Positions 1,416-32,187 of a stretch of DNA of 32,187 nt are shown in pieces (positions within the stretch are counted from its first letter, which is position 1; the number at the start of each line of letters is the position of its first letter). Made by a program: the position numbers and the translations under genes. The stretch is taken from the NCBI GenBank assembly GCA_002245135.1, contig NGBS01000876.1, positions 248,001 through 280,187 on the forward strand, in the 5' to 3' direction. The notes below the pieces were generated by a model, which had not been told where the DNA came from, searched no databases, and was given only the letters and a program-made list of their open reading frames with translations. Source of the stretch: Proteromonas lacertae (taxonomy: Eukaryota).

Positions 1416-2520
1416 TTAAAACATATGCATATTCTTAATCTGAATCTTCTGATCTTGTGATAAGCTTGTTGGGAATTGAATATTATATTCAATTATCAAA
1501 TCTCCTCTTTGACCAGGTTGTTTTGATATTGGCATACCTTCTTCAGATATTCTATCTCTTGTCTGTGGTGATACAATCCTTCTAACAGGATATTTTATCA
1601 CTCTTCCGTCTAATGTTTCTATTGGAACTACACAACCAGTTAAAGCTTCTTCTAATGTAATATTTGCTGTATAAACTAAGTCATTCTTTTCTCTCTTGAA
1701 TTTTGGATGAGGTTTTTCTTTAATAATGAATTTAACATCTCCTGGTATTTGTCCTGGCACTTGATCTCCTTCATTTTCAAATGTAAGTGCTGTTCCTTCT
1801 TTCCAACCTGGTTTTACATTGATTTCTAATATTTTTGATTCTTTTCTAGAAGATCCACTCCTATCAGCAACAGTCTTTACTATTTTCATTTTCTTTGTAC
1901 AACCTTTGAATAATTCTTCTAATGTGCAGTATATATCATAATTGGTAGTTTCTTGTTTTGCCATCTTTGGACGATATTCACTATTTGATTGACCTGGCTG
2001 TGGATAATAGTCATCATCTTCTTCTTCCATTCCTCCAAAGTTAAATCCTCCCATTCCACCAGGGATTCCACTACCTAAAACCACCAAATCCACCATTTCC
2101 TCCAAAATTAGTACTGAATTTAGCTCTCTTGTTACCACGACCACCACCCATACCTCCACCAAAGCCTGGAATATCAAATATATTACTAGAGCCAAAGAAT
2201 TGTTTGAATATTTCGTTTGGATCAATATTGCCAAAGTTACTGTAAACATGATGCACTCCTGGCTGACCATCAGTTTCCATTCCTCCAGCACCCATTTGTA
2301 AACCTTCTTCGCCAAATTGATCATAAATCTTTCTCTTCTCGTCATCATTCAACACAGCATATGCTTCTGCAATCTCTTTAAATTTCTCAGAGGCTTTCTC
2401 ACGATTATCAGGATTTTTATCTGGATGCCATTTTAATGCTAGTTTACGATAAGCTTTCTTTAAATCATCTTTTGAACAGTCTTTACTCACACCTAAGATT
2501 TTATAAAAGTCTCTTCCCAT
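1416..2520 (-). CDS. DNAJB: DnaJ/Hsp40 class B co-chaperone (Sis1/DNAJB1-like), with a frame break at ~2075-2114
   Basis: J-domain with HPD motif and G/F-rich region in ORF 2071..2520; C-terminal substrate-binding domain ([24 protein letters not shown]) in ORF 1416..2348. Confidence 0.9.
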
Positions 2521-2728
2521 TGGAATTAAGTTCAGAATATGTAAGAAAAATTGAAATAAAGTGAAGCGTTAATTTTGAAAATTGTTCTAGAATTTTTCAT
2601 TTTCTTCTAGATCATTCCAGAAACATCTATTCTCGAAATAATGGAATGTAGACGATTTTACCACTTCATTTACTTATTCTTTTACAAGAAAAAACGATTG
2701 AATAAATAAAATTATTAATTATTGAATT

Positions 2729-3950
2729 TTAACTTCTACTATCAGTAAAAACAGATGCAGATGTTTCAGTATGTGATTCTGATTTTTGCTGATCTGCTGA
2801 TGAAGATGTTCTAGAAACATGAGAAGATTGTGATCTTAAAGTGTGTTGCGATCTTCTTGAATTTCTTCTAGATCTAAATGTGTTATTTGCAAAATCAGAT
2901 GAATCATGTCTTTTTATATGTCTCAACTCTTCTGGACAAGTATCAACAATGTTTTGATAATCAAACATATAGGCTTGAATCACATCACAATCACTCATAC
3001 TCTGAGCTCCTTTTGCTGCTACTTCTCCTTTATCTTGCAGTAATTTCTCAAATTGCTTTAATCTTGCATCTTTTGATATTGTATCACTATGTCTCAATGT
3101 AGCACCATGAGTCTTTGATTTACATCTCAACAACAAGTTTTCAACTGACATAAATATCTAATCAAACAATATATATAAATTAAATCATACTTGACCTAAC
3201 AATAAGGTTCTATCAGATGCCATACGAATTGTATTATCATACTCATCCTGTATATTACCTTTCTCAATCATAGCCACTTCTAGATCCTTTTGTTTTTCTG
3301 CTAATGTATTATTATTCTTCAATATTTCATCATGTTTCTGTTTGCTTACTGTTGTTAAATGCTGTCTTAAATCTTCACCCTGTTGTAGTAAATCCCTACT
3401 AGAAGCTACTAATTGATCATTGGTTGATTTTAATGTTTTATATCTATTTAATATATCCACTATATCTGGGAATTCATCAGTACATCTTTGTACTTGTTCT
3501 AAATATAATTGATATTTTTTCTTTCGCTTTAATTCGTTATTCATTTGATTTAGTATTTCACGGTTGGCTTCTAGTTCTTGTGTTTTTTCTCTTATTTCAT
3601 TTTCTCTTATTGCTATTGCTTTTTTCTCTTCTTCAATTCTTTTCAGTGCTCTTGTTCGTTTTGATTCATTTTCTTGAAGGAATTTATTAAATTTGATAAG
3701 TGATTCTTGTAATTGCAAATCTTTTCTTCTTAATGCTTCTTCTCGACGATGAAAGGCTTCTTCTTTTAGAGCATAGTCAGTTTTTTGACTATCAAGTGCT
3801 TCTTGTACTTCAAACATTTGTCGACGTTTTTCTAATAGTTTAGTTGTTGGATCAACATTATCCAGAGAAAATGTATTATTCAGTCCTCTAATAAATTAAA
3901 TAATGTGCATTATACTTCTTTGATTTTAAATAATCTTCAAATGTGCTCAT
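2729..3950 (-). CDS. CCDC42/CFAP73-family (DUF4200) cilia/flagella-associated coiled-coil protein; introns 3888-3915 and 3158-3190
   Basis: The spliced product begins MSTFEDYLKSK...TKLLEKRRQMFEVQEALDSQK...LQESLIKFNKFLQENESKRTRA, which is the recognisable CFAP73/CCDC42 signature. Confidence 0.8.
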
Positions 3951-4050: not shown

Positions 4051-6170
4051 ATGGGTGTATATAAACTATTTTATGATGAAATGAATAGGCTGCTGGATCT
4101 ATTCAAGGTAATTCTATTGTACAATTTGCTCAGTTAACAATTCCAAACACTGATTGTGTATTAACAATTTAATTCATCTTTATAATCAATAGACATCAGT
4201 TTCTCCAAATTTTAAATATTCAGTATATTCATATTTATTATTCCAATATAAAATAGACAGTTCAATATTTGGGAGAAAGAAATAGTCAACATCAATTTGT
4301 TATAAAAAGTACAAGAGATGGAATATTTTATCTGTTAAAGACATTACCAACATATAATTTAGATGCAAACCAAGCTCCTGTAGTTGATTTCTTATTACAA
4401 GCTTCATACCCTCATATTGTCAAGTACTATAACTATGCAAAGAAAGATAATTTCTATTTCTTCGTAAGTGACTTATTAAACTTCTCATTAAGTGATTTTT
4501 ACAATAGATATAGCAATCACAAAGTTCCATTAGATGAAAGAATTATTTTGTTAATAATAAGAGATATATTAAGAGGTTTAGATTTATTCCATGAACAAAA
4601 TATAGTACATAATAACATCAATATAAATAATGTTTATATTAAATATCAAAATATAGCTGTTTTAGGTGAACCAAATATCTTTATATCACAATCATCATCA
4701 AATAATGGAAATGATTCAGAATATATAAGTCCAGAAGTTGTTAATGGAAATGTACCTACCACCAATAGTGATTTATTTAGTGTAGGATGTATTGCTTATT
4801 ATTTGGCAATGGGGAAAACACCGTTTTATAGTGGTGGAAATGTTTATCATACAATTAAATTAATATCACAAGGTAAATATAATCAAATCACTGGAAATTA
4901 TTCGAAGTATTTGAAAGATATGGTAAGTAGATTATTAGATATTAATCCTGAAAATAGAGGAACAATAAATGAATATTTATATGAGTTGAATAATAAATTA
5001 GGTAATTTATCATTGTCACAGGTTGTTGATGAAAATAGAGAAAGAATAATCACAGAATTACAGAATCAATTACAACACTTTTCTCTTCATAATAATGGCA
5101 ATTATTCATCACCTCCAGTTAAATCTTTATATCAATCCTTCTCTACTCCAGCCATTACAACCCAACAAATGACACAAGTTCCAAGTCCAGGACAATTCCA
5201 AGAATCTATTAGAGAAGAATTTGCTCATACACCGACATTTCAAGTTCCAGTTCAACCATACCAACAACAACAACAACAACAGCAATATCCTTCAAAATTA
5301 CCTCCATTAGAAGAACAACCACCAATAAATATATTTCAACAAGATGATGAAGAACAACAACAACAACAACAACAACAATATGATGAAAGAAAGTCTTTAA
5401 AAAGTCAAAGTAGTTATTCTCAATCTCAACTGACAATTTCTAGACATTCATCTAAGAAATCAATTCAAAGTAGTGTTATTTCTCCTGCAAGTATAATTAT
5501 TTTATATTTTATATTTTATATTTGTTTAGATGTTGTGATTGAAGGTCAAATGACTGATGATCAAATCCAACAAATGAATGAATTATTCAAAGGTCATCTA
5601 CCACAAACAACAACAATATTGAAACTAAGTGATAGAGATATTGATAATAAACTATGTAAATATCTAGTGAAATACTTACAGTCATATAAACATTTGACAG
5701 AATTATATTTACAAGATAATAATTTAAAAGATGATGGTTTAAAGGCATTAATACCAGCAATTGGTGGAATGAAGTATTTGAAAGTATTATTACTGTTTAA
5801 TATTAACATTAAAGATTCTGGAGCTGAGCATATAGCTTCAGTCTTACCATTTTTACAAGAATTATCAACATTCTCATTAGCAGGAAATCATATAAGAGAT
5901 AAAGGAATGAGTTTTATTGCTGAAGCATTACCTATGATGAAGAGATTAGAGATATTGAATTTGGATGGAAATAACATTACAGACAAAAGTGCTTGGGATA
6001 TAGTTGGTGCTGTGAAGAATTTACCTACATTGCATAAGCTGTCGCTTGGTAAATGTGATTCTGGGAATGATAAATTAACTCAAGGTGATCAAATGGCTGA
6101 AGTATTAATGCAAGGCAATAAACAGTGGACAACCCTATTTATTCAGAATAAGCATTACGAAATGAGATAA
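4051..6170 (+). CDS. Putatively N-myristoylated pseudokinase + Gln-rich linker + RI-like leucine-rich repeats; introns 4057-4088, 4158-4192, 4223-4256 and probably 5491-5529
   Basis: Spliced N-terminus is MGAAGS. The kinase fold has degenerate motifs (IVHNNININN, LGE, YISPE, SDLFSVG). C-terminal repeats are LxLxxNxLxDxG. Confidence 0.75.
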
Positions 6171-21334: not shown

Positions 21335-23050
21335 TTATAAATGAACTTCAACATTTACTTTTCTTTTTGATTTACATTCTATTGCTTCAACATTCAATAT
21401 TCCACTTTCACTCATTTTAAATATCACTTCAACTCCTACTATACCAGCTGGCTTGGGAGGTAACTCTGTAAATAAACAAGATTGTAAATATTTATTATCT
21501 CGAACAAATTCATTTTCTCCTTCATATATCTTTAATTCTAAGGTTTCTTGATTGTTCTCGGTTGTTTCAAATATTTCTGTCGCTTCACATGGTAATTTAC
21601 TTCCTTTTTCTATAAATTTCCACATTTTACCACTTATATCAAAATCATCAGTATATTCCATTCCCAATGATTTGGATACTATATCATTTACTGTTATTGA
21701 TCGATCTACTTTTAGATCATTACTCTTACTTTCATTTATAGATGTAGAAGAAGTGGAAGGTGTAGAAGGAGATGATGAGGATGATGAAAATGTATTAAAT
21801 AACAAAGAAAATATATTTCTCTTTTTTTCAACTTTCACATTTTCTTTATTTTCTTCTTCTTCATTCTTCTTTCTCTCTTCCTCTTCTTTTTTAATTTTAT
21901 TTTTCATTCGTTCTTCAGCTATTATTATCGCTCCTTGACTTACAGCTTCATCAGGATTTATATCTCTGCATATTTGAGTTTTGGGAAATTCTTTCTCTAA
22001 TAATTCGATTACATACGGTATTCTACTACTTCCACCGATTAATACTAATTCACTTATATCATCTTTTTTTAATCCATTTTTGGATAATAATTCTAATAAG
22101 ATTTCTATTGTTTTATCAAACAATGGCTTGTTAATTTCATTAAATAATGTTCGAGTTACATGAATATCAATATCATTATCTTCTAATAAACTACTGTTCA
22201 AATCAGTATCTAATGATTCACTTAATACACATTTACTCTCTTCACAACTTTTTCTAATTCTAGCTTTTTGTTTTATATCTAAGTCTTTCCCAGTTTTATT
22301 CTTATATTTTTCATTGAAATATTCAAATAATTCATTCGTAAAATCTTCTCCACCTAAATGGTTTTCTCCATCACTACATAATACTCTTATATTCGTTGGA
22401 CTTACTTCGATTATACTTACATCAAATGTTCCACCACCTAAATCATAAACCAATATTCGATGATTATTTGTTACTTTCTCTGATGTAAATCCATATGCTA
22501 TTGCAGCTGCTGTTGGTTCATTGATTAAATCCAATACTTTCAGTCCCGCTAATTCTCCTGCTTCCTTTGTTCTGTTTCTTTGAGTAACATCAAAATTGGC
22601 TGGAACTGTTATTATTGCATATTTATCTAAGCCTTTATCTTCATCTACTAGTTGATTTTCTAAATTATTTATTAGATGTCTTAATATTTCGGATGACACT
22701 TGCTGTGGTGTAATTCTTTCTTTTCTGTTTGGTATTACGAATTCTATATCATTATTCTCATTTTTATCTATTTCGTATGGCATAGATAAATCATCTTTAA
22801 TTTTTTCATCTGAATACTTCAATCCTATAAACCTTTTTGCATCGTACACTACATTCTTATAATCCTTAATCATAGCATTCCTTGCTGATTCTCCTACATC
22901 AACTGCACCATTTTCACGATAATAAACACATGATGGAATTGTTCTGTTCCCTGTTACACTATTTACAATACAAGTATGGTTATCTCTCATAACTCCTAGA
23001 CAAGAAGTAGATGTCCCTAAATCTATTCCACAAACGATATATCTGTCCAT
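21335..23050 (-). CDS. Divergent Hsp70-family protein, intronless, lacking the helical lid and EEVD
   Basis: Motifs GIDLGTS, ITVPANF, INEPTAAAIAYG, VYDLGGGTFDVS, LIGGSSRIP and NPDEAV are present. The protein ends just after the beta-sandwich substrate-binding subdomain. Confidence 0.9.
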   Translation of the reverse strand: MDRYIVCGIDLGTSTSCLGVMRDNHTCIVNSVTGNRTIPSCVYYRENGAVDVGESARNAMIKDYKNVVYDAKRFIGLKYSDEKIKDDLSMPYEIDKNENNDIEFVIPNRKERITPQQVSSEILRHLINNLENQLVDEDKGLDKYAIITVPANFDVTQRNRTKEAGELAGLKVLDLINEPTAAAIAYGFTSEKVTNNHRILVYDLGGGTFDVSIIEVSPTNIRVLCSDGENHLGGEDFTNELFEYFNEKYKNKTGKDLDIKQKARIRKSCEESKCVLSESLDTDLNSSLLEDNDIDIHVTRTLFNEINKPLFDKTIEILLELLSKNGLKKDDISELVLIGGSSRIPYVIELLEKEFPKTQICRDINPDEAVSQGAIIIAEERMKNKIKKEEEERKKNEEEENKENVKVEKKRNIFSLLFNTFSSSSSSPSTPSTSSTSINESKSNDLKVDRSITVNDIVSKSLGMEYTDDFDISGKMWKFIEKGSKLPCEATEIFETTENNQETLELKIYEGENEFVRDNKYLQSCLFTELPPKPAGIVGVEVIFKMSESGILNVEAIECKSKRKVNVEVHL

Positions 23051-23402
23051 TTTTTCTAATAAAAGTAGAAAAACAATAAAAAACAAAAAACAAAAAGTGA
23101 CTGTAATGTTTTACACAATATTACGTTCATGTATTTTATACTTAATATAAATAATCTTTCAATGAAAACATTCTTATGATAATTTTATTGTTTATTTCAA
23201 CATAACAGAGAAATAATTTATCACGAATGACAAACAGTCAAATAATTTTAAACAATTATGAAAGATAAATCATCAATTGTACTTTTTTTGTTGATAGTAA
23301 CTCTATGAGTAGATAATTGAAATAATAAATTCTATAAAAGTAATTTGACAAAATTACAGAAAACTACGTAATTTTATTTTTATTGTGTAATTATCATTTT
23401 CA

Positions 23403-25644: not shown

Positions 25645-27770
25645 ATGAAGAGAATTAGAGAATATTTGCGAGATAAATTTGAAATAGACTGTGATGTATG
25701 AATATATTTATAATAAATTCTAGAAGTTGAAAGCGTTTAAAGAGAAAGATACCGAGTTGAGTATATTGAATGAAGATTTACATAAGGTTATGAAAATATT
25801 TGATATAAGGAAGTGTAGAGAAGCAGTAATAAGACATATCGAACATAATAACAGTTTGTTGAGTAATTTATCTCTTCCTTTCATCATTCCTTCAGTTGTT
25901 TATGTAGATGATTCATGTCAAAACATGATAATTGAGCGAGACTCATATAAAGCTGATTTAGAAGAGATGATTGAAAGAAAGTTATTGTGTGATGATGATG
26001 AATTCAATATAATATATTCTATGTGTGATGTATTGATGATATTGAGTGAGTATGGTGTAATAGTGAGTAATTTGAAGACGAGTAATGTAATATATGATAG
26101 AGAAAATGGTGAAATAAAGCTATGCGATTTGTTTTTTAATGAATTAAGAAGTGAAGAAGAAATGAGTGTATATGATGTTTGTTTCAAAAGCCCAGAAGAG
26201 TTGAATGGATATGAATGTGATGAGAGAAGTGTAATGTGGTCATTTGGATGTATATTATATGAAATGATAAACAATGAAGTACCATTTAGAGATGATAATG
26301 ATATAAATAAAACAAAAGAGAATATATTAAAAGGTAAGTGTTGTGCAGATAAGCCTGGTGAATATTATAAAATTGCAGTGATGGATGGAATGTTGAAGAT
26401 GAACAACAAAAAGAGATTTAGTTTGAAAGAGTTGAAAAAAGAATATATCCTAAACGAAGAATTTATCGACTCAGATTATGAAAAAAAAGAAATAATATAT
26501 AATAATGATTATTCAAAAGAATTTTACCCATATTATATTCAAACAGAGTATTATGTAAAAAGCAACAAATATGAGAGTATATAGAATAATATATATTACT
26601 ATATCTGATTATATAATAATATTTGAATAGAAGTTAAAGATGAATTAATCGAATTATATTTAAACAGTGATACTATAGAGATAAGAATATTCTCAATAAT
26701 ATTAAGAATGCAGTTGAACAAATGGGATTATAATATATTAAATAATAAACTCAAATTTCGATATTTACATCAGTGCATAGAAAATGAAGACAAAAAAGAT
26801 GATGAAGTTAATATTGAAAAAGAAAATGAAGATGATTTAGTAAATGAATATGAATATAATAATAATATGTGTATATTAGATTATAAGATGTTTAATATTG
26901 CAACTGATAGTGATGATAAAGATAAAATCAAAATAAGCAAAGATTGTATATGTGAGAATTTTTGTGAAAATGGAATAAATTATATGATGATGGTGTTGAT
27001 GTATTTCAATCCAAAGAAGCTCACATACTGTATAATTTTCATAATTCTATTTGTTTAGTTGATGATAACTGGTATATTTCTCTTCCAATTCCAATTAAAC
27101 ATCAGTCATTGTTCGGATCTTTATTTTCTGAATTATCTAATCTTCAAGAGATAGATTTTCATTCAAGTAATCTTACTTATCATTTCATTGAATCATTTGT
27201 TAAATCAATTCCATCAATGAAATTGAAATATGTAGATCTTCGATGTATTAATTATTAATGTTTTTAATATATAGTCAATCCAATTGGTCCAAAAGGCTTC
27301 AAACTATTACTTTCATATTTAAACTTATTAATTAATAAAGATAATGTATTGGTTCTTACACAAATGAATTTGAATGATGAATCCATGGTATTGTTATCAA
27401 AAGAATTGAATAAATATCCAAATCTTCAGATAATAGGTATAATAGGGAATAAAAATATTCATGCAAGAGGATTAGAAGCTTTGTTTTCAGAATTTCCAAT
27501 TTCAAGAATACTATTTAATTTCAATGGAAGTAAAGAGTTATTAATTGATTTAAGCATACCAGAATTGATATATTGTATATATGAGTATAATGAATATGAA
27601 AAAAGAATGTTAGATTTAGAGGATTGTGATATGGATGATGAATTTTTCTCATCTTTATTTCGTTTTAGGCTATCTCAATTTAGAGGATTAAAAAGAATAG
27701 ATTTAAGAAGTATAAAATGATATTTTTATAATGTTTAGATAATAAACTAACATATAAAATATATGTATAA
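25645..27770 (+). CDS. Divergent pseudokinase + LRR protein; introns 25696-25723, 26577-26630, 27030-27058, 27245-27274, 27710-27738; probably truncated at the 3' end
   Basis: All five introns splice in frame. Kinase-like motifs are IVSNLKTSNV, KLCDL, KSPEE and SVMWSFGCILYEM. LRRs include VDLRFNPIGPKG and IDLRNNKLT, after which the frame stops at YKIYV*. Confidence 0.7.
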
Positions 27771-27881
27771 CCGTAAGAATATCACTGTATGTGGGTAAAC
27801 CGTACCAGACTATTCTTAGGTGCCTTCTACAGGTAAGAATAAGCGATTTGAGTGTGAATTAGTTTTTGGTACGGGTTATAC
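27765..27881. repeat. Nested imperfect inverted repeats (hairpin 1)
   Basis: CCGTACCA 27800-27807 pairs with TGGTACGG 27867-27874. Inner TATTCTTA 27811-27818 pairs with TAAGAATA 27834-27841. GTATAACCGTA 27765-27775 is an alternative partner for TACGGGTTATAC 27870-27881. Confidence 0.65.
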
Positions 27882-28008
27882 TGGAGCAAGCGGTGAATTT
27901 AAAATTGTGTATATATTTTAGTGTGTGAATAAATTTATGGGTTAAAATTTATTTTTATGTTTTTAATAGTTTGTAGTGTAGGATAGTAGAAATAAAGTGT
28001 ATAAATAG

Positions 28009-28049
28009 AAAGGTAGCTACCTGTTCTACCCCGGCAGGGTAGCTACTTT
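28009..28049. repeat. Inverted repeat built from two GTAGCTAC palindromes (hairpin 2)
   Basis: AAAGGTAGCTACCTG-ttctaccccgg-CAGGGTAGCTACTTT; AGGTAGCTACCT 28011-28022 is itself a perfect 12-bp palindrome. Confidence 0.7.
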
Positions 28050-28075
28050 ATATAATAAGAAATGTATTTCTATGT

Positions 28076-28167
28076 AAGTAAGTAGCGTGTCCTGTGTAGC
28101 CTAGCTAGGACTTAGTGATTAAATAGTGTGGTGGCCAAGCTACAGAATACGTTCTTACTTTTTTTTA
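28076..28167 (+). ncRNA. Candidate structured small RNA (hairpin 3) ending in a T9 run
   Basis: 28076-28100 pairs with 28139-28160 (about 21 pairs including 2 G-U), followed by TTTTTTTTT. Contains an internal A-box-like TAGCCTAGCTAGG. Confidence 0.35.
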
Positions 28168-28399
28168 GTTATTTTTCATTTATCAAATTAATAATGGATT
28201 TATATAGTGTAGTTAAAAACATTCAAAAGAATTTAAATAGTATCAAAAATATATATTTAAAGAATTATCTGCAGTATTCTATATTTTTTAATAAATCGAA
28301 ATTCTGACGAGAAACTGTTGTTATAAACAGAAAAAAGAAACAGTTTTGATTTTCCTGGCATTTTTGAAAAAACCGTTTTTTATCAAAAAAATATAAAAT

Positions 28400-28879
28400 A
28401 TGTGTGCTTCAGTAAACTTTGCTTTCTTTTGTTCATTTAGAAATAATGAAGATTATTTAGATAAGTGTATATGTGGAACATGTAAGTTTTACTTATATTT
28501 TAACCATAATATAAGTGCAGTTTTAGATAGTCCATTACCTAAGGAAGAGATAAAGTCTTATAATGAATTCTGTGCTATTTGTCATCAAAAGATGTGGACA
28601 AAGTACAGTGATAAGAGATATTACATGATGCTTTTCGATATTAAACCATCAGTAAAACCAAGAGGATTAAATAGACATTATTTTGCAGTGTTTGATAAGT
28701 ATATTGAATGGTTAACACTACCTGAAGGAATGGGAAGTGTTCATTTGAAGAAGAATCCTATGTTGAAACATTATGTAAAGAAGAATTATATATTTGATGA
28801 TAGTGATGATGATGAGGAAGAAGAAGCACAAGAAGAAGTTAAAGGAAACAATGATCAAACTACGATAAACATACTCTAA
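28400..28879 (+). CDS. Hypothetical Cys-rich (possible Zn-binding) protein with acidic C-terminus, likely element-encoded
   Basis: Intronless 159-aa ORF with CICGTC and CAICH motifs and a DDSDDDEEEE tail, convergent with the structural genes. Confidence 0.6.
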   Translation: MCASVNFAFFCSFRNNEDYLDKCICGTCKFYLYFNHNISAVLDSPLPKEEIKSYNEFCAICHQKMWTKYSDKRYYMMLFDIKPSVKPRGLNRHYFAVFDKYIEWLTLPEGMGSVHLKKNPMLKHYVKKNYIFDDSDDDEEEEAQEEVKGNNDQTTINIL

Positions 28880-29014
28880 ATTTTAAAACGAATCTTTATC
28901 TTAAAATGATTTGGGACAGGGTTTAAAAATATGCGTAATTTAATAAAAATCATATAATATAATAAAAATATAATAAATTTTATAATAAACATAATAAAAT
29001 AATCATAATAAAGA

Positions 29015-29800
29015 TTAAAATGGTTCTGTAACACCTGTATCCATCCACTCTGTTATAATAACTTGAGGTGGGAATGCTTGATATGAATATGCATCAAGAC
29101 CTTTTCGTTCTATATAAAGATTACATTTATTATTATTATTTCTTAATATAGGCCAAAAACATCCATAATCATTAATTGCAGGTTGTGAAGTTTCATTTAT
29201 TACACCTTGTATAGGGAAGTATATTCCATTACTACCATCTACAAAGTATGTTTCTAATAATTTGTTATAATATTGTTGCAATAAATCTTCTTTACCTGGT
29301 TCAGCTTTAATAACATGATTGTCATCTAGATATAATATAAATCCATAACCATCATCATGATTTTTTAAAACAAGGCCATTGTATATCTTGATTCTCATAA
29401 AATGTTCAAACATTTGAATTTTTATAGGTACTTTTACAGTAGATTCATATTGATTGATGGAACCATCTTGAAATATATAGAAATTAACTGACCAATATGT
29501 ATATTCAGTATGCAATAATTTAGGTGATACAGAATTATTAACTATTGTAGTACTACCTCCAGAGCTATTATTTACAACATTATATATTTCTTGACATTTA
29601 CCATATATAGTATTTGTAGTAGTTTTGATATCATTAACAGGTGTAATAATATTATTTATTTGAGTATCAGTATGATTATTAATAGGTTTAACAATAGTAT
29701 CAGGATCAGTAGGTTGTATATTTATTTTGTCAGCTATATCTTTAGCAAGCTTATCTGTATCAATATTTATATCTGAAGTATTTCGTTCCCCAATAAACAT
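29015..29800 (-). CDS. Hypothetical viral structural protein (fibre/spike or minor capsid candidate), 261 aa
   Basis: Intronless and co-oriented directly downstream of the ATPase. It has a heptad-like N-terminus, an SSGGS linker and an aromatic beta-rich C-terminal domain. Likely start is MFIGER at 29800. Confidence 0.55.
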   Translation of the reverse strand: MFIGERNTSDINIDTDKLAKDIADKINIQPTDPDTIVKPINNHTDTQINNIITPVNDIKTTTNTIYGKCQEIYNVVNNSSGGSTTIVNNSVSPKLLHTEYTYWSVNFYIFQDGSINQYESTVKVPIKIQMFEHFMRIKIYNGLVLKNHDDGYGFILYLDDNHVIKAEPGKEDLLQQYYNKLLETYFVDGSNGIYFPIQGVINETSQPAINDYGCFWPILRNNNNKCNLYIERKGLDAYSYQAFPPQVIITEWMDTGVTEPF

Positions 29801-29844
29801 TTTTTGAATTAATAAACAATAAAATAACAAAATTAATAAAAACA

Positions 29845-30606
29845 TCAAGAAACTTCAGAATGATCTTCAATCAAAATATTAAAGTTAGCTCTAAACACTT
29901 TTTTAACATTATCAATATATAAGAAGTTATATTGTGGCTTAGTAACAGCTAAATATAACTCTTTAAATGTTTCATATTCAGGTATCCATATATTCAATGA
30001 GTTGTATAAGTCAAACAAATTTCTGTTACTCAATCCATAAAATGTTAAACAATAATCTACTTGTGATCTTGCTGAAGGTACTATATCAGTAATATATTGA
30101 CTACTAATTATAATTTTTGATTTTAAATGTCTATTTTCTTTCATTAATACTGGTATGATATTAGCTGTTTTCAACTCTAAACTAAGATCATCAAATATTA
30201 TAATATGTTCTGCATACTCAAAATTATCTTTGTTTGTATCATCAATTGATTTCATTAACTTCTCTACTAAATTATCTCCTGAATAAGGTTCAAATAATGA
30301 ATCGTTTTCATCATAACTAATTTCATTATAATCTAATAACTCTTTAATTGAATCATATATCCTATCTTGTTTAATTGTACCTACGAAAAAATGTACATGT
30401 TGTTTTTTCTTATATTTTGGATCTATAATATGTCTTAATATATTGTATATCAAAGTAGTTTTCCCACTGTTCTTACGAGCTACAATAAATATATTGCAGA
30501 AAGGCTCATTAAAGTAATCATATCCCAGAATTTTCTTAGGATCAAAAGACTCACCACCATCAACAGGTTCAATTTGTATATTATTTATTTTTTCAAATTT
30601 AAACAT
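29845..30606 (-). CDS. A32-like/FtsK-HerA superfamily viral DNA-packaging ATPase, 253 aa
   Basis: Walker A IFIVARKNSGKTT, Walker B IIIFDD, and the arginine/sensor region ENRHLKSKIIISSQY...ARSQ. Size and C-terminal YNFLYID are typical of Polinton/virophage ATPases. Confidence 0.9.
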   Translation of the reverse strand: MFKFEKINNIQIEPVDGGESFDPKKILGYDYFNEPFCNIFIVARKNSGKTTLIYNILRHIIDPKYKKKQHVHFFVGTIKQDRIYDSIKELLDYNEISYDENDSLFEPYSGDNLVEKLMKSIDDTNKDNFEYAEHIIIFDDLSLELKTANIIPVLMKENRHLKSKIIISSQYITDIVPSARSQVDYCLTFYGLSNRNLFDLYNSLNIWIPEYETFKELYLAVTKPQYNFLYIDNVKKVFRANFNILIEDHSEVS

Positions 30607-30676
30607 AGTGTGTGTATATATTATGTAGTGAGAAATCAAAAAATAAAAATAGAAGTCAATAATAAAGTATTATTAC

Positions 30677-32094
30677 TTATACTACCTTTTCAACACCTCT
30701 TGGTCCAATAATCAATTGTTTACCAGTAATTATGTAGAACTTATGATGAATTGTATATGGATTATGATTAGCATCAAATCGTTGATTTGAGCAATCCAAA
30801 GTAATTTTTAAATCACTTGCTAAGTCTTTACCAGCTCTTAATTTTAATTCAGTTAATCGATCAGTACTGAAATTTAGAACATCAAAAAATGAATTGGGAA
30901 ATGATAATGTATTACATTTATCAAATATTGTATTTTGAATAATATTTCTCATATATTCCCATGTCTGATATTTTGCAGGATATAAATAATCAGGTGTATA
31001 AACGAAATCATTAATTTGCCATCTTATTCTATCTTGATCTTGATCAAAAGGAATAGTATCTCTATTATATGCATCATTATAATATGCTCTGTATAATATA
31101 TATTTAACATAACTTCCTATGCTACTATTAATACTGAAGTTATAGTTAAAAGTATTACTACCTGGAATTGGATCTTTAGTGATTTGAACTATATTAAAGT
31201 CAGTAAAGTCAATAGGATGATGAGTTGAATAATTAATGGTATTAGCATTACATGTTGGATCTTTATTGTAACAAATGTAAAGTCTAGGATTAATAATTTT
31301 CATTCCTACATGCTGTTGCCATGAATTAATCCAAACAGAACCATTGCTATGATGAATCCAATTCATTATAGGAGCAAATGTGAATTGAATATAAATGACT
31401 TCACCAAAATAAATATCATTCTTCAAAGCTAATATGGTATTATAGAAATCTGCAAAATGAAATCTACAGTATAGTTTTCCATGTAATATATCTTCTGTTG
31501 TTCCCATTTCTTCCCAATAATTCCAAACACCTCCATTTGCATTTAAAGTAGAATTAGAATTACATATAGTTGTTTCAGCTATTTTATTATTTCTAATGCG
31601 TAAGCCATCAAATAAATATTCATAATAATGATAATCTTTTATATCATAAGGATACTGGTTAGCAATTTGATGAGCTAAATCTCGATATTCATTATAACTA
31701 CTATCTAAATCACATAGAAGTGTTCCAGTTTTATTGTATACTTTGATAGTTCCAAAATTCATTGAATTCCTTAAATTTATATGATCTAACATTTTACCAG
31801 TAGTAGAATCAGTTACAGGTGTAATAGGTAATTTCCATTGTCCTTTACCTGCATCTGCATGATCTCTTTTTTGACCTGTAGTATAATCTAATTCAAATTC
31901 AAAGTAACTTTTAGATAGATTAACACAATTATCACCAGATATTTCAAATGTAATAGCATCACTGTTTGAATTTAAGATAAAACAGTCTCATTTCTGCTTT
32001 GGTTAGGTGTAACTAAAATATGATTGTAGACAGGTATATAAGCTGGCACAATGCTTTCATGTTTTTGTGAATTAGGTACAGCAGTGATTGACAT
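30677..32094 (-). CDS. Putative double jelly-roll major capsid protein (~472 aa if a 1-nt frameshift at ~31975-31987 is corrected)
   Basis: ATG at 32094 runs 40 codons to TAA 31972-31974. The main frame opens after TGA 31988-31990 and reads ITFEISGDNCVNLSKSYFEFEL, resembling the N-terminal IxF...xDLxxSYL motif of Polinton-type capsids. Beta-rich and adjacent to the ATPase. Confidence 0.7.
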
Positions 32095-32187
32095 ATTTTA
32101 TGTTATTTTTTAAAATCAAAAAATGCTTAAAAATAGCAAGAAATTTATTAATACAAAATAATCTCAAAATAAATAGGTAAGTTATTT

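Follow-up and report, generated by a model that had tools for sequence, protein, structure and literature searches.

The likely left end of a probably integrated Polinton-like virus of the Proteromonas capsid family in the genome of Proteromonas lacertae

What occupies the right end of a 32,187-nucleotide stretch of the Proteromonas lacertae genome (contig NGBS01000876.1 of assembly GCA_002245135.1, positions 248,001 to 280,187 of the forward strand; hereafter, the window, with positions counted from its first base) is the question that this locus raises. The host part of the window is gene-dense eukaryotic DNA with short AT-rich introns, and it encodes Rad51, the ribosomal protein eS1, kinases, an acyl-CoA synthetase, a DUF4200 protein and Mak16. 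From about 27.76 kb onward, the remaining 4.4 kb contain four intron-free open reading frames (ORFs). A preliminary description of the window had read this part as one end of a Polinton-like virus (PLV) integrated in a compact gut-protist-type genome, and the double-jelly-roll capsid and the A32-type ATPase described below support this view. Since the element is contiguous with host genes and a host exon is plausibly truncated at the junction, we infer that it is likely integrated into the host chromosome. The segment from 27.76 to 32.19 kb is thus very probably the left end of a Polinton-like double-stranded DNA provirus, whose capsid is akin to a published Proteromonas capsid cluster and which likely lies inside a kinase and leucine-rich-repeat (LRR) gene of this Opalinata-type flagellate.

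The ATPase gene (29845-30606, minus strand) encodes a genome-packaging ATPase of the A32/FtsK-HerA type (253 aa). The protein matched Pfam Pox_A32 above the cut-off, and when a profile of 33 sequences was searched against the PDB, the only entries at E <=0.01 were two of STIV B204 (E 5e-7). Both Walker motifs are intact (A, ARKNSGKT; B, IIIFDD), as are RH and SSQ, which are invariant in the family. Homologs numbered 107 among 445 candidates, the best showing 92% identity. The Ala at the first position of Walker A, where Gly is usual, had been taken as a hint of a poorly described lineage; however, this residue was Ala in 87 of the 107 homologs, Ser in 9, Gly in 4 and another residue in 2, with 5 unparsed. 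Because Ala prevails, it is a trait of the family, and its use as a sign of novelty was ruled out. In an unrooted FastTree tree of 99 rows (98 of the 107 homologs and the window protein, nine having been dropped for length), the window protein and 12 proteins from Logan contigs formed one side of a branch with an SH-like support of 99; this tree was free of named reference viruses and cellular ATPases and shows grouping only. Whether the ATPase groups with cellular proteins was therefore judged from the searches and the gene context. Lithocolla globosa may be another protist host of the wider lineage, as three ATPases of the same family (P0027, P0036 and P0037) are in its EukProt set.

The gene at 30677-32094 (minus strand; about 475 codons in two frames) encodes a major capsid protein (MCP) of the double-jelly-roll kind. 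No Pfam or PHROG family matched this protein. Of 1050 candidates in a protein search, seven were homologs (40-75% identity), each from a Logan contig; capsid-pattern scans of metagenome contigs and viral contigs gave no relatives. An AlphaFold2 model, which was built from an 8-row alignment, was mostly beta. Foldseek placed the mavirus MCP at the top (E 1.6e-8), with Sputnik, STIV and PRD1 capsids also ranked first, and the independent VIA-align search gave as its top 13 matches only capsid or scaffold proteins with a double jelly roll (Z 11.1-6.6 over 253-308 aligned residues, root-mean-square deviation of about 5), followed by partial single-domain matches (Z <=6.1). In a fold search of a viral library, the best match was a 420-aa protein labelled 'MELD virus sp.' (E 1.4e-9). 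These comparisons of the predicted structure show that the capsid folds as a double jelly roll, the fold that the preliminary description had proposed for it.

Since mavirus and Sputnik capsids were the best PDB matches in Foldseek, we considered a giant-virus-dependent virophage (Virophaviricetes) as an alternative to a Polinton-related PLV. One Atlas neighbour cluster likewise has Sputnik MCP domains in 10% of its members. However, the identity to virophage capsids was only 8-11%, which is a similarity at the level of the fold, and VIA-align tied the folds of nucleocytoplasmic large DNA viruses, virophages and poxviruses. In addition, no Pfam virophage capsid matched at E 0.1, and in the tables available from Bellas et al. 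2023 (PMC10120064), the Proteromonas hits stand in a column outside the virophage block. A virophage is, thus, very unlikely, and its capsid and ATPase led us to assign the element to the PLVs, within the Proteromonas capsid family; in its working, it resembles an endogenous Polinton or PLV.

From the ATG at 32094, the capsid ORF runs for 40 codons; after a one-base break near 31980, the other 435 codons are read in a different frame. Because the upstream frame is 85% identical (33/39) to the N-terminus of the homolog P0007, the break is real in this sequence, and this copy is therefore either decaying or carrying an assembly indel. Unlike the capsid, the ATPase and the other two ORFs have unbroken frames. 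A frame change was also found in a host DnaJ/Hsp40-like gene (label by eye; 1416-2568, minus strand), near position 2075 in a G-rich, G/F-rich linker lacking an AT-rich intron; it is possibly an assembly indel or an atypical intron (a 40-nt G-rich GT-AG stretch). This frame change, together with the many short capsid predictions published for Proteromonas (9 of 15 are 304-371 aa in the available supplementary data to Bellas et al. 2023, PMC10120064), makes assembly indels plausible.

Capsid, ATPase and a third gene (ORF3; 29015-29800, minus strand) are co-oriented and converge on a Cys-rich ORF (ORF4; 28400-28879, plus strand), as the preliminary description had it. It had also held that introns vanish after about 27.76 kb, and this was borne out by an intron census and by alignments with homologs. 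AT-rich GTA..TAG stretches occurred in 33 rows (two of them overlapping duplicates) in the 27.8-kb host part, as compared to a mean of 18.4 and a maximum of 27 in 30 shuffles, whereas in the 4.4-kb element, where shuffles averaged 3.7, two rows were seen, each of them antisense to element ORFs. The last host-type intron is at 27710-27738, and end-to-end alignments of the main capsid frame, the ATPase and ORF3 with their homologs were free of any intron-sized gap. The observed/expected ratio of CpG was 0.41 in the host part, 0.94 in 27755-28399 and 0.22 in the coding part of the element (28400-32187). The last value was below those of all 120 host windows of equal size, and the depletion could reflect methylation-driven decay of silenced copies. 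The high CpG of the terminal segment is weak by itself, since values of at least 0.93 also occurred in 9 of the 271 host windows of that size (645 bp). TGTTTGTT was not enriched in the window (3 sites), and the genes of the window use DNA-encoded stops. The GC content of 28% found here compares with 27.0% reported for P. lacertae in Table 1 of PMC12129017.

The host gene next to the element (25645-27770, plus strand) was modelled with six exons and encodes a kinase-like protein with LRRs (651 aa). Exon 2 matched Pkinase (E 1.5e-21), and five GT-AG introns of 28-54 nt leave one open frame up to the TAA at 27768-27770. The last exon starts at 27739 and reads NNKLTYKIYV, so that the stop comes 10 codons after the last intron and just past the LRR motif IDLRNNKLT; the LRR was recognised there by eye, with no Pfam match on that exon. 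Since the earlier repeats of this gene run tens of residues past the LxxLxLxxN motif, truncation by an insertion is the simplest reading, and the gene was likely cut short by the element. From the end of the host frame and the onset of a hairpin-rich segment, the presumed left junction was placed at 27755-27770. The window holds two kinase and LRR genes within 32 kb, this one and another at 4257-6170 (plus strand), which possibly belong to an expanded host family.

The hairpin-rich segment (27771-28160; non-coding, 390 bp) is a candidate terminal inverted repeat or origin. Its GC content is 35%, as compared to 18-24% in three host intergenic regions. The folding of 27750-28200 had a z of -3.2 against shuffles, and the terminal segment surpassed all 141 host windows in folding, as it did all 43 that were matched for GC content. 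At about 28009-28049 lies an imperfect palindrome, in which the palindromic 8-mer GTAGCTAC occurs twice. No reading frame longer than 62 codons was present in 27771-28399, and a known RNA or tRNA gene was discarded as an explanation of the segment, which matched no Rfam family or tRNA. The palindrome was not found in the viral contigs searched, nor was any long inverted copy found within 27000-32187. Palindromes inside terminal repeats have been described for some Halocafeteria elements in the available text of bioRxiv 10.64898/2026.07.28.741278.

The virus could be real and yet not integrated at this place, if a free or episomal genome or another proviral copy had been misjoined to host DNA at about 27.76 kb. 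Multi-copy elements are prone to chimeric assembly joins, and the capsid frame break and the possible indel in the DnaJ gene point to an error-prone assembly. On the other hand, the join lies inside a coding exon, and the structured non-coding DNA that directly follows it is what one would expect at the end of a genome; the composition of the element also matches that of the host. In a Proteromonas assembly, moreover, 285 hits to the family have been counted, and capsid genes usually mark full-length integrated elements according to the parts of Bellas et al. 2023 (PMC10120064) at hand. These observations make a misjoin quite unlikely and argue for integration.

Each of the four element ATGs is preceded, within 80 nt, by the 8-mer TTTTGATT, with a plus-strand copy at 28344-28351 and minus-strand copies starting at 29876, 30641 and 32121. 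A shared word of this length occurred in 1 of 1000 dinucleotide shuffles, a figure to be read with the motif and the 80-nt width having been picked post hoc from data already seen. The motif was upstream of none of the six host ORFs tested (two of which are probably internal exons) and of none of 108 genes of environmental relatives. Judged from its position, it is a candidate element-specific promoter motif.

ORF4, which is convergent with the other three ORFs, encodes 159 aa with a Cys-rich N-terminus (CxCxxC ... CxxCH) and an acidic tail. Library scans, to which the search for this protein was confined, gave only a sub-threshold match to Pfam zf-RRPl_C4 (E 0.07); the residue pattern suggests that it may be a zinc-binding regulatory protein. 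Because the upstream TTTTGATT and the CpG depletion are common to the element ORFs, ORF4 was placed in the element and is likely viral. If the element instead started further right, at about 28.9 kb, then 27771-28879 including ORF4 would be host DNA and the kinase-LRR gene would end naturally. Such a start would agree with the lack of a known viral homolog of ORF4 in the library scans, with an AT-rich gap between the convergent ORF3 and ORF4, and with the GC content at third codon positions of ORF4 (0.23), which is above those of the other three ORFs (0.11-0.17) and inside the host range of 0.14-0.25. It is opposed by the fact that ORF4 is intron-free and has both TTTTGATT and the CpG depletion (0.22) in common with the minus-strand ORFs, and also by the terminal segment, whose GC content (0.35 against 0.18-0.24 in the three host intergenic regions) and folding (beyond all 141 host windows) set it apart from host DNA. 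The later start is therefore unlikely, and the junction at 27755-27770 is preferred.

ORF3 encodes 261 aa with a low-complexity N-terminal half and a beta-rich C-terminal half. It has two clusters of Logan homologs with 31-36% identity, and the capsid, ATPase and ORF3 homologs appear to share Logan contigs, as equal contig sizes suggest (10216, 8989, 9425, 5898, 5312, 2748 and 4941 bp). No PDB sequence matched ORF3, its structure model was unusable (pLDDT 32), and its Atlas neighbours, phage tail-tip and knob domains with scores <=0.87, are weak leads. Several environmental relatives have a long gene downstream of the ATPase, and collagen and C1q fibre-type domains occur in such long genes. 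In view of these genes and the Atlas leads, ORF3 was rated a possible short fibre or spike, a weak candidate, and its role as a structural gene is a guess. ORF3 was ruled out as the penton and as the small protein of the relatives (HHalign probability 0.1%), and neither ORF3 nor ORF4 had a match in any of the 85 ATPase-anchored loci described below. An exact look-up in the protein collection gave no entry for the window's ATPase, ORF3 or ORF4.

The environmental relatives were obtained from ATPase-anchored scans giving 85 loci, the metagenome scan contributing the best 80 of 191. A capsid profile of the window family alone detected a capsid ORF in 19 of the 85 loci, and a profile of 12 environmental capsids alone recovered the window capsid frame (E 1e-15). 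HHalign aligned the window capsid family with these 12 capsids over the full length (99.4%, E 1.5e-21, 409 columns, 17% identity). When the two were combined in one profile, which is partly circular, a capsid was found in 25 of the 29 loci of at least 5 kb. The window capsid sat on a long branch of an unrooted capsid tree (27 rows, quick method, with a long-branch warning), which like the ATPase tree was free of named reference viruses and shows grouping only. Environmental protease-encoding PLVs (L001, L002, L004, L011, L022, L027, L040, L045, L048 and L057) have a homologous full-length capsid, and the environmental PLV loci carry the same ATPase family as the window, with about 30-38% identity. 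As in the window, their capsid and ATPase genes are co-oriented and close together. The usual gene order in the loci is a penton-like gene, capsid, a small protein and ATPase, the penton label being given by position and a weak match to PBCV-1 P1v1 (E 0.07); the window differs in having no counterpart of the gene of about 130 aa that is usual between capsid and ATPase.

A Ulp1/adenain protease was detected at the Pfam C48/C5 cut-off in 8 of the 11 relatives' loci whose candidate was scanned; 4 loci had an rve integrase, 2 had pPolB and 5 had primase/SF3-helicase domains. These Pfam scans covered 59 hand-picked ORFs, one of which was scanned twice. The locus L011 has pPolB, an rve integrase and a cysteine protease together, whereas other relatives use a primase-helicase. 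L022 (10614-15949) has three such features next to one another: a pPolB-like domain, an rve integrase that also matched a chromodomain, and an SF3-helicase-like ORF. The relatives fit the published description of protease-bearing Polintoviricetes-related groups; in the available text of bioRxiv 10.64898/2026.06.19.733378, the protease is tied to Maverick-Polintons, Gosseviruses and the host-less VC35. The environmental relatives possibly belong to VC35 or to another Polintoviricetes-related group of Bellas & Sommaruga 2026; by their names, none of the loci could be placed in a named group of the 2021 PLV table.

Some observations weigh against a provirus end at this locus. The GC content is nearly unchanged at the junction (0.283 vs 0.262), the capsid model is of medium confidence only (pLDDT 58, pTM 0.52), and the window contains neither the penton nor the conserved small protein of its relatives, although the penton candidate of the relatives usually lies just upstream of the capsid and the corresponding place here is beyond base 32187. 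Moreover, the likely truncation of the kinase-LRR gene was read from an exon model made here. With these points taken into account, the left end of a PLV provirus is still the reading that we hold to be very probable.

From the relatives and established Polinton/PLV biology, the complete element would be a linear genome of about 15-25 kb between terminal inverted repeats, 27771-28160 being the left one. A virus-encoded integrase, most likely of the rve type, would have inserted it. In an active state, the intron-free genes would be driven from the common TTTTGATT motif, capsid trimers and the penton would form an icosahedral shell, the ATPase would pump the DNA into it, and the Ulp1/adenain protease would mature the particle. 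From the protease, the integrase and the pPolB or primase-helicase present in some loci of the relatives, we predict that the penton, protease, integrase and replicase genes (the last for pPolB or a primase-SF3 helicase) are located beyond the right end of the window. A bolder proposal, which we put forward only tentatively and regard as rather doubtful, is that the Proteromonas-type proviruses are the gut-protist branch of a widespread, unnamed protease-encoding Polinton-related lineage (possibly VC35), and that they form a still active family which has its own promoter motif and inserts into host genes, disrupting them, the capsid break then being a sequencing error. VC35 has no known host or endogenous form according to the available text of bioRxiv 10.64898/2026.06.19.733378; if the proposal is true, the lineage would gain an endogenous anchor in an anaerobic flagellate of the vertebrate gut.

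Other host genes of the window were also observed. An Hsp70-like ORF (label by eye; 21335-23110, minus strand) is divergent and intron-free and has a charged, Ser/Thr-rich insert. The DUF4200 gene (3185-3895, minus strand) is CCDC42/CFAP73-like; we take its role to be ciliary, which would point to a flagellated host. Blastocystis has lost nearly all flagellar genes, as stated in the available part of PMC12129017. The GC content, short introns, DNA-encoded stops and DUF4200 gene of the window suit a Proteromonas-like flagellate better than Blastocystis, which was discarded as the host also in view of the lack of TGTTTGTT enrichment.

The find is modest, since endogenous PLVs are common in protist genomes and the capsid family has been counted before. 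What is added here is the gene arrangement at one end, with a candidate terminus and a candidate promoter motif, the likely disruption of a host gene, and a link from the Proteromonas capsid cluster to free environmental viruses that encode a maturation protease. Confirmation would provide a host lineage for a virus group that has no name yet; it would also offer a tractable system in which to ask if gut flagellates make such virions and if this requires a helper giant virus.

Among the named systems, the Gosseviruses (GKS1; PMC7805220) resemble the window element in their stramenopile hosts and endogenous forms, and many members have a protease, as do relatives of the window element. However, the GKS1 capsids (type PC_0014) for which sequences were accessible are 576-593 aa and, by eye, have none of the motifs of the window family, and in the tables at hand from Bellas et al. 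2023 (PMC10120064), the GKS1 columns do not include the Proteromonas hits. The Blastocystis MELD virus (Starrett et al. 2021, PMC8502044) also has an Opalinata host; the portion of that report consulted describes PolB and an integrase, with virion proteins unrecognisable by sequence. Its link to the 'MELD virus sp.' protein matched by the window capsid is by name only, and the Blastocystis rows in the accessible tables of Bellas et al. 2023 (PMC10120064) hold no capsid count.

The closest counterpart is the Proteromonas lacertae cluster itself. The preliminary description had taken the divergent capsid as suggesting a poorly described lineage, but Tables S1, S3 and S4 of Bellas et al. 2023 (PMC10120064) already list 285 P. 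lacertae capsid hits in one cluster outside the named groups; the available main text never names Proteromonas. The cluster is also plotted in bioRxiv 10.64898/2026.07.28.741278. In the sources accessible to us, it is in print as a capsid only, with no gene map, terminus, ATPase or group name, and the genomes of its elements are not described; the lineage is catalogued already, yet not described in this literature. The published capsids are of similar length (304-509 aa), and their double jelly roll was confirmed by ColabFold and Foldseek. Outside five matching blocks, the published representative is a clearly divergent subtype. Within these blocks (FEI..DNC.NLSKSY, YNT.LA...D..FGE, FNY.F.INSSIG.Y.K, R..W.INDF.Y.P.Y and FF.VLNF), which were chosen for conservation and read by eye and not from a whole-length alignment, the representative and the window capsid share 49 of 71 residues (13/18, 9/15, 12/16, 9/15 and 6/7), which marks the window element as kin to the Proteromonas capsid cluster.

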